A stretch of 64,000 nucleotides of DNA from an uncultured Planctomycetaceae bacterium. GTDB lineage: Bacteria; Planctomycetota; Planctomycetia; Planctomycetales; Planctomycetaceae. Where the stretch lies: contig CAWFAK010000017.1 in the NCBI GenBank assembly GCA_963813715.1, positions 672,001-736,000 on the forward strand, written 5' to 3'. Position numbers and translations under genes: made by a program. The notes under the pieces were generated by a model that made no database searches, was not told the origin of the DNA, and saw nothing but the letters and a program-made list of their open reading frames with translations. The stretch's first letter is position 1. Each line of letters opens with the position of its first letter. Shown here in pieces: positions 53,842-57,050 of this stretch.

Positions 53842-54011
53842 CGTAGGCGAGGTGGCGAAAGGGTCGCGACCCGGACCCCAGCGCTAGATTCGGGACGCTC
53901 GAACATACCGGCCCGACCAAGTTGCCGCCAGTTCCAATCGTCCGTTCGGAAGGTACCACCGTTACGATTCGCCGCTTCACGTTCGGTGGCTTCTCCGGGT
54001 CGCTCATGCCG

Positions 54012-54422
54012 TCATCTTAGCGGGGCTCGACTCTCGCCCATTTGGCTTAATCCTTCCCATGGCCGCCCGCTCCAGTATCGCAGCTCGATGATCTCACCGT
54101 CCTGCGGGTAGGCTATGGCACTAGTCGGATCCTCCGACACCCAAACATCATCGACCCTGCCAGGCACGCCCCATACCGCGATGACCGATTTGTCGCTGAG
54201 TAGGTCGTTGACGAACTGTCGCACCGCGTCGGCCGCCGGCAATCCTGACAAGGCGGCGAGGATTTCGGCATGAGTGTGCCAGGGGTATCCGTCGAAGCCC
54301 AGCGCTGTGTCGCCGCTGGCGTCCACAACCACGAGGAACCGCAAGCGGCCGTCGGGGCTGACGTGCTCTTCGACGGTCTGCACGGCGACCTCGGGTACGA
54401 TCCATTCTTCGTTGTCGCTCAT
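54012..54422 (-). CDS. Hypothetical protein
   Basis: 136-aa ORF with ATG start and coding-like composition. Confidence 0.6.
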   Translation of the reverse strand: MSDNEEWIVPEVAVQTVEEHVSPDGRLRFLVVVDASGDTALGFDGYPWHTHAEILAALSGLPAADAVRQFVNDLLSDKSVIAVWGVPGRVDDVWVSEDPTSAIAYPQDGEIIELRYWSGRPWEGLSQMGESRAPLR

Positions 54423-54803
54423 GCCATCACCCTAGTCCGTGATAGTGTCCGGACCGGATTCAGACTTCGTCTTAAACCGCATCTGCAGCGCCTCTTAATT
54501 CCGGTCTAAATTTAAATTGTGAAGATGAGACCGGACAGGACCTGACTCGACGTTTCGTGCTCACCATTGAGCTCATTAGGGGGCTTGGGGTCGAGCCGTG
54601 TGACGTACCCACCGGTCCGCGACCGCCGGTTCTCCTGTCCAAATGACGGGATTATGCCGTTGAAAAAGCACAACGTGTCCGCGAAAAAACGGCCGGACTC
54701 CACTACGGATTGGGCGTGAGGAAGCGCCCTGACGGAAATCCGCCCCTTGGTGGTGGGATCTGTGTATGGTGCAGATCCATTTCCAACCACACGGAGCGGA
54801 TCA

Positions 54804-55936
54804 ATGGCAACGACGAAGCTGCGGGCAATTCAATGTGTACATTGCGGGAAGCAATTCAGCTACGTCCACGAGGAACCGGAAAGCCCGTTCTATATGAATG
54901 TCGGCTGGCTTGCTCTGTGCGACTGTGGAGGACGAACGGCAGTCCACGGGACGATCAAGAAAACGAACTTCGAATTTAGCGCCGTGTCTGGACTTGATCG
55001 GGGCCTTTATGTGAATGCAGAAATTGAATCCCCGCGGCTCAGATCCGTCTATCGCACCTTCATCAGGAACATGGATCAAGTGATCGCTTTTGGAAGGCTC
55101 CCCCACTTGTTCAAGCTACATTACGAATCATTTCTGCCCGTCTTTCAGATTACGGATCAGAGAATTATTGCGGACTCGGGCCTGATGGTGCGGTCGCAAA
55201 TTGGGCTTCCGATTGACCCGACAGTGATTGATCCGGACCTTAAGTATGTGATGTGTCGCGGCATGCGCAATGGATTGGCGGGACTGTTGTCGTCAATGAT
55301 CACCGGCACTTGGACGGCCTTTGAAACTTTGTCCGGGGACTTGTGGGAGGCGGCATTAAATACCGCTCCCACGAAGCTACGCTCTTGCCCGGCAGGCCAA
55401 ACAGGATCGAACGGAAGACCGGCTCGCGCTCAACCAAACAGCAAGATCCCGTCGGCCAGGCCAACGCCGAACAAAAACCTGAGGAAAAGACCGAGGAAGA
55501 TGCCCCGCCGGATAGAGCGGTTTCTCTTCGCTCGATGAGTCGCGCGAGCCGTGGCAAATTCAATCTTCGGCATCTGATGGGGACGGTTCAGCGAGAGCAA
55601 CTTGAATTGGACTCACTAAAAGGAATTCGAGAAGCCTACAGCAGGGCTTTTGATAAGCCCTTTGAGAAGGATATCGACGAATCTCTGGCTGATCGGGATC
55701 TTGACACGCTTCAAGCCGTGAGGAACCTGCTGGTTCATAGGGCCGGTGTTGCCGACCAAAAGTATTTAGATCGCAAAGATAAGTTTCCAGCGCTGCCGCG
55801 CCTCGCGAAAGGCGATCGCCTCAAACTGACGGGGGCATTTGCTGCTGATCGCATACTGCCCGTGATGAGGATTGCACCAAAGCTCGCCGTAGCAGTCGAT
55901 CGTCGCGTGCGACGGGAGGGCGCGGCCGGTGACTGA
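54804..55936 (+). CDS. Zn-ribbon + HEPN-like protein, frameshift near 55380
   Basis: CVHCG...CDCG; WTAFE helix; R-x4-H motif (VRNLLVHRAG) in ORF 55343-55936. Confidence 0.7.
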
Positions 55937-56111
55937 GAAATTAGAGATCAAGTGCGATTGGTGCGACGGCCAAGGACGGATCGATGCCGGGGACAACAGG
56001 CCGTATGAGTGTCCGGTGTGCCAAGGATCGGGGTTTGAGCCGACCGCAGATGGAGAGAAAACTCTCGCGCTCGTGCGTCACAACTTTCGCCCGATGTTTG
56101 GACGGAGGTAG
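55929..56111 (+). CDS. Anti-TRAP-like / DnaJ-type zinc finger protein
   Basis: LEIKCDWCDGQG...CPVCQGSG..PTADGEKTLALV; GTG start overlaps upstream stop. Confidence 0.7.
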   Translation: MTEKLEIKCDWCDGQGRIDAGDNRPYECPVCQGSGFEPTADGEKTLALVRHNFRPMFGRR

Positions 56112-57050
56112 AACCGTGACGATTAGTCCTAGGTCAGTCCCGTAAGCATTCGTTTATGGACAGGCTGGCGCCGAGCCGGTTCGCGCTTCCTCCATTGTCA
56201 CCGGCATAATCCCGCCAAATGAAAGTGTCCGGACCGGATTCAGACTTCGTCGTAAACCGCATCCGCTGTGTCCTTTAACTCCGGTCTAAATGGGAATTGT
56301 GAAGATGAGACCGGACCAGACCTGACTCGACGCTTTGTGCTCAAAGTCGAGCCCGCTCGGGATGGCTTGGATCGGGGCTGGCGGGTTCGCCCCCAAGGTC
56401 CGCAACGCCCGGTCTTCGTGTGCAAAAGAAAGTGTCCGGACCGGATTCAGACTTCGTCGTAAACCATATCCGCTGCGTCGCTTAACCCCGGTCTAAATCC
56501 GAATTGTGAAGATGAGACCGGACCGGACCTGACTCGCAGTTTTGTGCCCACAGTCGGGAGCCCAACCCGGGGGCCGGCTCGGGGGGCGACCCTTCAGGCT
56601 CGCTCACCGGGTCCGACCGCGGGTCTTCGGGTGCATATAAAAGTGTCCGGACCGGACGTGTCGCATCAGATGACCGAATGGACGGCGATCACCGAATGGA
56701 TTACGTCCCAAAAACTCCGTCGGTGCTCCACCGAGCGGCCCGTTGCGGCGATTTCATCCCCGGCGCAAGCCGATCTCGGCCGTCACGACGGGGCCAAATT
56801 CCATTCTGCCACAATTCGTTAGCCAACCAAGATCGGATTTCTACGCCGTTCAGTTCTGTGCAGTTGCGGCCAGAATGCAGACGGGAGATTCGCCTGGGTT
56901 GCCAAAGTTCGGGATGCTCGAACAGACCGGCCCGACCAGGTCGCCGCCAGTTCCAACCCCGCTTCCGGACGCGCGGAAATCGCATATTTCTTTCGCGCCG
57001 CGACGCGGTTAGGATCGGAGCGAATATTCGGAACTCAAGTGGCCGGGCCG

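Follow-up and report, generated by a model that had tools for sequence, protein, structure and literature searches.

The window analyzed in the present study, a 64,000-nt stretch of the genome assembly of an uncultured Planctomycetaceae bacterium (G000; 7.49 Mb, 82.6% complete), contains a non-autonomous cassette of 1,568 bp (54647..56214, no strand assigned) in which two genes are enclosed by the ends of an IS1595-family insertion sequence (IS). Gene content and the named relatives of the cargo also make a planctomycete host likely. The 17-bp terminal inverted repeats (TIRs) of the cassette, CGGGATTATGCCGTTGA and CGGGATTATGCCGGTGA, which agree at 16 of 17 positions, belong to a left end (54647..54712, plus strand) and a right end (56189..56214, minus strand), and the 8-mer CCAAATGA flanks the cassette exactly on both sides (54639..54646 and 56215..56222, plus strand) as a target site duplication (TSD) of the length given as typical of the IS1595 family in PMC8101967. 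Between the ends, the plus strand encodes a large protein of the 375-aa class with a zinc ribbon and a predicted HEPN RNase domain (54804..55936) and a 60-aa anti-TRAP-like zinc protein (55929..56111), the GTG start codon of which, at 55929 and preceded by GGGAGG, lies before the stop codon of the large gene (55934-55936), giving an overlap of 8 nt. No open reading frame (ORF) for a DDE_Tnp_IS1595 transposase exists inside the cassette, which is thus not an autonomous IS1595 element and resembles mobile insertion cassettes (MICs) in carrying passenger genes between IS ends. A first-pass annotation made from the letters alone had proposed these boundaries, the overlapping genes, and their CxxC..CxC and RNLLVH motifs, and all of them were recovered here. 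A sigma-70 promoter scan found no promoter, and contigs from two RNA libraries (of four runs) span both genes, which as contigs cannot show transcription.

That the cassette is a genuine insertion is practically certain. Its core 13-mer, CGGGATTATGCCG, occurs exactly twice in G000, at the two ends of the cassette, and an exact 8-bp flanking repeat accompanies only two of the 2,151 inverted [CT]GGnnTTA pairs of the assembly, with 0.06 expected; these two are the cassette and a second element situated in another copy of the same dispersed repeat. The GC content is mostly 51-57% within the cassette and about 62% outside. In addition, the removal of the cassette and one TSD restores, as the first-pass annotation had stated, a 204-bp repeat unit (interrupted unit, 54444..54646, plus strand) that matches the neighboring units at 160 and 157 of 204 positions, where the neighbors match each other at 168. 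Two more units and the head of a fourth follow on the right (56224..56656, plus strand), and the spacings of the repeat heads are 204, 207, and 211 bp.

The IS1595 origin proposed earlier is borne out by a 2,928-bp IS1595 element in the sister genome G002 (L103:6442-9369), which has the TSD TTGTTTTA and encodes the zinc ribbon (PF12760) and the DDE domain (PF12762) typical of IS1595, split in the G002 assembly between two ORFs. The left end of the cassette is identical to the transposase-distal end of L103 at 59 of 66 nt, and the right end to the transposase-proximal end at 24 of 26 nt. Because its ends match those of the transposase-bearing L103, the cassette is, judged from its sequence, an IS1595 derivative that retains the transposase-distal end, the cargo read inward from it, and 26 nt of the opposite end, and it likely arose through loss of the transposase region. 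CGGnnTT is taken here as the end consensus of an ISNha5-like subgroup of IS1595. The cargo of L103 differs from that of the cassette and includes an MtlR-like ORF with RNRFAH (E 0.003, below the cut-off), so that exchange of cargo between matching IS ends is on display in these two genomes. Other potentially toxic cargo was seen on IS1595 elements of the genus: apart from the MtlR-like ORF (L103:8644-9279), there are a DUF433-DUF5615 pair (L105:8605-9372) and, judged by eye, a DUF4145-like ORF with a PIN-like neighbor (L108:8747-10140).

IS1595, IS1-like, and IS110 elements have all inserted in the repeat that received the cassette, a hot spot overlooked by the first-pass annotation. Matches to its unit of about 207 bp number 26 in G000, 7 in G002, and 3 (all of them short) in G007, whereas nine other genomes of the genus have no match. 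A 344-bp transposase-less IS1595-type element, bounded by CGGAATTA ends and containing one small membrane ORF, occupies the same register in another copy of the repeat (G000 C7:435104-435447; L002:8105-8448), and one end of a transposase-bearing IS1595 element of G002 (L105), the other end and TSD of which were not found, abuts a related repeat at the register of the cassette. The shared register is not attributable to chance because only about 25 repeat heads exist among 956,000 AT-rich 8-mers. The preference is not exclusive, since L102, L103, L106, L108, and L111 sit at other AT-rich 8-mers. IS1-like elements with GGTAGTG/GGTAATG ends have entered the ~207-bp repeat at its head and are accompanied by a 9-bp duplication, TCCGGACCG (G000 C7:437078-437868 in L002, C8:490741-493662 in L004, and C5:~559600 in L003; G002 L113; G007 L115); one has an IS1 transposase and one has none, and loose ends in runs X3 and X4 share the junction. 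An IS110-family element interrupts the middle of a unit (G000 C7:~435600-437000; L002:8644-9720). Other IS families, too, are known to insert into dispersed repeats at a fixed position (PMC1525189). The possibility that the repeat is a structured RNA was dismissed, as no meaningful Rfam match was obtained and the folding z was -0.03. No RAYT/Y1 gene was present beside the repeat arrays that were checked, and G000 as a whole has eight PF01797 matches.

Several other arrangements were observed. A second IS1595 subfamily with GGCATTAATATAC ends (L021, L101, and L111) inserts at AT-rich spacers of a different short repeat (GTGACCC..CCC). Arrays of small genes, many of them membrane-like and starting with MSDEPK, occur at L003:2344-4048, L004:4499-5114, and 54012-54422 (minus strand) of the window; they share a leader (..GACGGCATGAGCGACGAACCGAA) and often a tail, lie inside or beside IS1-like elements, and look cassette-like, with no integrase seen. 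A 62-bp direct repeat (84%) at 53889-53950 and 56908-56969 of the window, 3,019 bp apart, brackets the repeat array and its neighbors.

The large gene is split in this assembly by a one-base gap at 55379/55380, which the first-pass annotation mentioned only among its suggested checks. Contigs from two public runs restore the frame and an intact homologue exists at 80% identity, on which grounds the reading as a pseudogene was rejected; an error of assembly, which the first-pass annotation had missed, is a very likely cause of the frameshift. The family of the large protein comprises 1,678 clusters at 50% identity and is unnamed, with no Pfam, PADLOC, or NCBIfam model, and to that extent it was rightly called undescribed. 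Among 125 family sequences, which have four invariant columns, E174 and the residues of RNxxxH are among the few invariant positions (numbering follows P0002): R305 and H310 are present in all 125, and N306 in 124, with H in the remaining one. The conserved Rx4-6H with a polar residue after R is the hallmark of HEPN proteins, whereas the position +4 from E174 is mostly G instead of the K/R of the typical HEPN Ex3[KR]. A zinc ribbon is present in only 28 of the 125 members, and the large protein carries an insert of about 100 aa. Neither PF13643 (DUF4145, at E<=0.01) nor PF18735 (RiboL-PSP-HEPN) matched any of the 125 members; hhalign gave 0.5% against five DUF4145 members and, for PF18735, 10.7% over just 37 columns around E174, with a control of 6.9%. 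A sequence search of the PDB with the family profile returned only spurious coiled-coil matches, and a search of a viral fold library gave no match at E<=0.001. G000 also has two paralogues of the gene without the small partner, at C5:~1121600-1122840 (L006:2600-3842; split in the assembly and near an IS110 transposase) and C5:~597700-598970 (L026).

The small protein, previously described only as a zinc finger, is a homologue of anti-TRAP, as profile and fold match over its full length. It matches PF15777 (Anti-TRAP) with 46.7 bits (cut-off 32), a 14-sequence profile matches PDB 3lcz (E 1e-11) and 2bx9 (E 5e-11), and the six best Foldseek rows for its predicted model are all anti-TRAP (best E 0.004; TM 0.66-0.71). 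It falls under the cut-off of the NCBIfam RtpA equivalog (36.8 bits vs 65), and TRAP itself (PF02081) was not found in G000 by a search that did detect the Bacillus subtilis control, so the protein does not qualify as a true RtpA regulator; no trp-operon or T-box context surrounds the gene. A word-based homologue search with the small protein retrieved only itself, and a single-protein metagenome scan gave no matches. Because Bacillus anti-TRAP is a protein inhibitor that blocks an RNA-binding protein by binding to it, as stated in PMC11255114, the analogy suggests an inhibitory role here.

Members of the large-protein family are repeatedly found with mobile elements. The search with the large protein yielded 58 loci, from which seven near-duplicates (L040, L041, L066, and L072-L075) and L080, which had no match, were removed to leave 50. 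Twelve of the 50 (9 of the 26 with long flanks) have an IS1595 transposase no more than 2.6 kb away, compared with 17 IS1595 matches across the roughly 90 Mb of sequence from the genus, and 14 further loci have IS4/IS5-type, IS110, Y1, resolvase, integrase, or prophage genes among neighbors that were selected by simple filtering of ORFs. The complete IS1595 element L021, 2,613 bp long, contains only a transposase and the two genes, and L036 and L039 are complete IS1595 elements that include the pair; because the ends of these three differ from those of the cassette, the pair moves between IS1595 subfamilies.

The interpretation that we favor, with a confidence somewhat above even, is that this transposase-less IS1595 cassette carries a HEPN RNase acting as a stand-alone anti-phage effector of the abortive-infection type, for which the anti-TRAP-like protein is an optional inhibitor. 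It builds on the ends, TSD, end kinship, gene content, family conservation, and partner adjacency described here. An IS1595 transposase would have placed either the cassette or the full-length element from which it derives in the AT-rich spacer that precedes a repeat head, duplicating 8 bp, and both genes, reading inward from one end, would be translationally coupled. The large protein might dimerize, bringing the RNxxxH motifs of both subunits together in a composite RNase site that stays inactive until a trigger arrives; the trigger might be sensed by the N-terminal zinc ribbon in this subfamily, by analogy with RAZR. The small protein might dock on the RNA-binding surface to dampen self-toxicity, as Bacillus anti-TRAP does on TRAP. 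We regard a HEPN fold of the large protein as quite probable, and a role in defense as slightly favored; regulation of the RNase by the small protein is possible, but we lean a little against it.

How the two genes relate was examined at the 45 of the 50 loci having at least 300 nt downstream, and the expectation that they co-occur elsewhere held at 14 of them, where the small gene directly adjoins the HEPN stop codon (offsets from about -43 to +13 nt), 6 times in tandem and 8 times convergently; one additional weak match (14.8 bits) was left out. Because the profile included 12 of the 14, their scores are inflated; their initial detection, however, relied on a three-sequence profile, and five match Pfam independently. 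An obligate type II toxin-antitoxin pair, in which a constitutively toxic HEPN RNase is neutralized by the small zinc protein and thereby stabilizes the cassette as an addiction module, would suit the 8-nt overlap with its ribosome-binding motif, the tandem pairs, the sparse contents of L021, and the inhibition of an RNA-binding protein by anti-TRAP reported in PMC11255114. The small gene is, however, absent from 31 of the 45 loci, including both G000 paralogues, 8 of the 14 pairs are convergent, and it lies downstream of the toxin candidate. A genuine link between the genes thus exists, but it is optional and in many cases does not take the form of an operon, so that the definition of a type II system does not apply, the small gene is better described as an optional partner than as an obligate antitoxin, and we consider such a pair improbable; the earlier suggestion of a two-component toxin/defense pair, taken as obligate, is not supported. 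A slightly better but still unlikely explanation is that the two are independent passengers that both favor IS1595/IS1 elements and became adjacent without mutual action. Both orientations are scattered on a quick HEPN tree of 40 rows, needing three changes each (P0002 was scored as tandem from window evidence), and L103 combines the same ends with other cargo. Moreover, of three small-gene matches in 11 genomes of the genus, two adjoin HEPN genes and one is on an IS1595 element without HEPN (G003). Against this stand the rarity of the small gene and its position: 400 genomes of the phylum gave 13 matches, nine of which were in long ORFs set aside by length as DnaJ-like, and of the four short ones, one converges on a family member next to an IS1 transposase, and three have no HEPN nearby. 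Wherever both genes are present, in records from Planctomycetota, Alphaproteobacteria, and Eremiobacteraeota, the small gene touches the HEPN stop, and an IS1595 or IS1 trace is near 6 of the 14 pairs and absent near 8. It is more unlikely still that the large protein, as a helical bundle, has some other function and that RNLLVH is no RNase site. HEPN proteins typically form a four-helix bundle with an insert between helices 2 and 3; the predicted fold is compatible with HEPN, but its Z of 8.0 equals that of rhodopsins. The invariant R, N, H, and upstream E occupy HEPN positions of the predicted bundle.

Separate from function is the question of mobility. The word "spreading" in the first-pass annotation goes too far, because the cassette has a single copy in G000 and the only IS1595 transposase trace there is a 33-aa remnant (C7:195828-195926, L001), with no full IS1595 transposase found in this 82.6%-complete assembly. 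The search for the ends in G000 led back to this cassette alone, and a cognate element was found in G002. By end pattern, both ends are present in G000 and G002 only among 12 genomes, G011 having one match with one mismatch; a junction pattern had no match beyond G000 in 150 genomes of the family, two of them of the same genus, and the single match in viral contigs lies within a gene and is not an element. IS1595 matches exist in 5 of the 11 other genomes of the genus. The 33-aa remnant itself has as neighbors a small ORF that looks DNA-binding and another of 387 aa, with no ends found. The cassette might therefore be an immobile relic of a full element that lost its transposase in place and never moved in trans, a history with an even chance in our estimation. 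The single copy, the retention of just 26 nt of the transposase-proximal end, and run X1 contigs that bridge both junctions at the same site, with no empty-site joint among those listed, agree with it. On the other side, the cassette has kept its TSD and both of its TIRs intact, the same register in another copy of the repeat is occupied by a second element that lacks a transposase and has different ends, and a helper may be unassembled because of the incompleteness of G000. For movement of the cassette in its present transposase-less form, the evidence inclines us neither way.

The surprise in these findings is limited because the element type and the logic of HEPN cargo on a mobile element are already known. 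No paper joining HEPN with anti-TRAP, or placing HEPN cargo on IS1595 cassettes, was found in a literature search whose coverage left out most subscription journals; the protein family, its partner, and the multi-IS target repeat were likewise not found in print, and the supplement of PMC3710099 may list the family under another name. The present study names a testable candidate defense family, links this family with small IS1595 elements, and presents a repeat with site-preferring insertion by IS1595 and IS1-like transposases. For the anti-TRAP fold, known from work on the control of tryptophan in Bacillus, it adds a recurring context that does not involve TRAP, together with a specific binding hypothesis. 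A bolder extension, which we consider rather doubtful, is that IS1595/IS1-like elements spread trigger-activated HEPN RNases with a dedicated anti-TRAP-fold inhibitor, that Bacillus anti-TRAP is a domesticated immunity protein of such a mobile RNase, and that the ~207-bp arrays are integron-like landing pads for gene cassettes of three IS families.

Cassettes that lack a transposase of their own and are activated by a cognate one form an established class (PMC3129680), and the element studied here resembles IS1595-family MICs and transporter IS (PMC3129680, PMC5704250, and PMC8101967) in its TIR-bounded form, 8-bp TSD, passengers, lack of transposase, and existing cognate full element. It differs from them in its cargo, where a predicted HEPN RNase of an unnamed family is joined by an anti-TRAP-like gene, in its fixed register in a dispersed repeat, and in that a full helper transposase was not found in the same assembly. 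The use of a single fixed position within a dispersed intergenic repeat recalls the IS elements that target repetitive extragenic palindromic sequences (PMC1525189), whereas the ~207-bp repeat is hit by three IS families at different positions, with a preference that is not exclusive. The small protein shares with Bacillus anti-TRAP (RtpA; PDB 2bx9 and 3lcz; PMC11255114) the arrangement LExxCxxCxGxG...CxxCxGxG-x-PT-x-G-helix throughout, the Pfam match, and the fold, but not the RtpA-level score or a TRAP partner in the genome, and it is located on a mobile element. HEPN-MNT, RnlAB, and AbiV likewise combine a HEPN effector with a small adjacent gene; the partner here has the anti-TRAP fold in place of a nucleotidyltransferase or RnlB, is absent from most loci, and is often on the opposite strand. 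RAZR/PD-T7-4 is an abortive-infection RNase composed of a zinc finger and a DUF4145 HEPN domain (PMC13017515), and the large protein departs from it in having no DUF4145 match, a length of 375 aa with the inserted segment, a canonical Rx4H, a zinc ribbon confined to a minority of its family, and a small partner that is optional.
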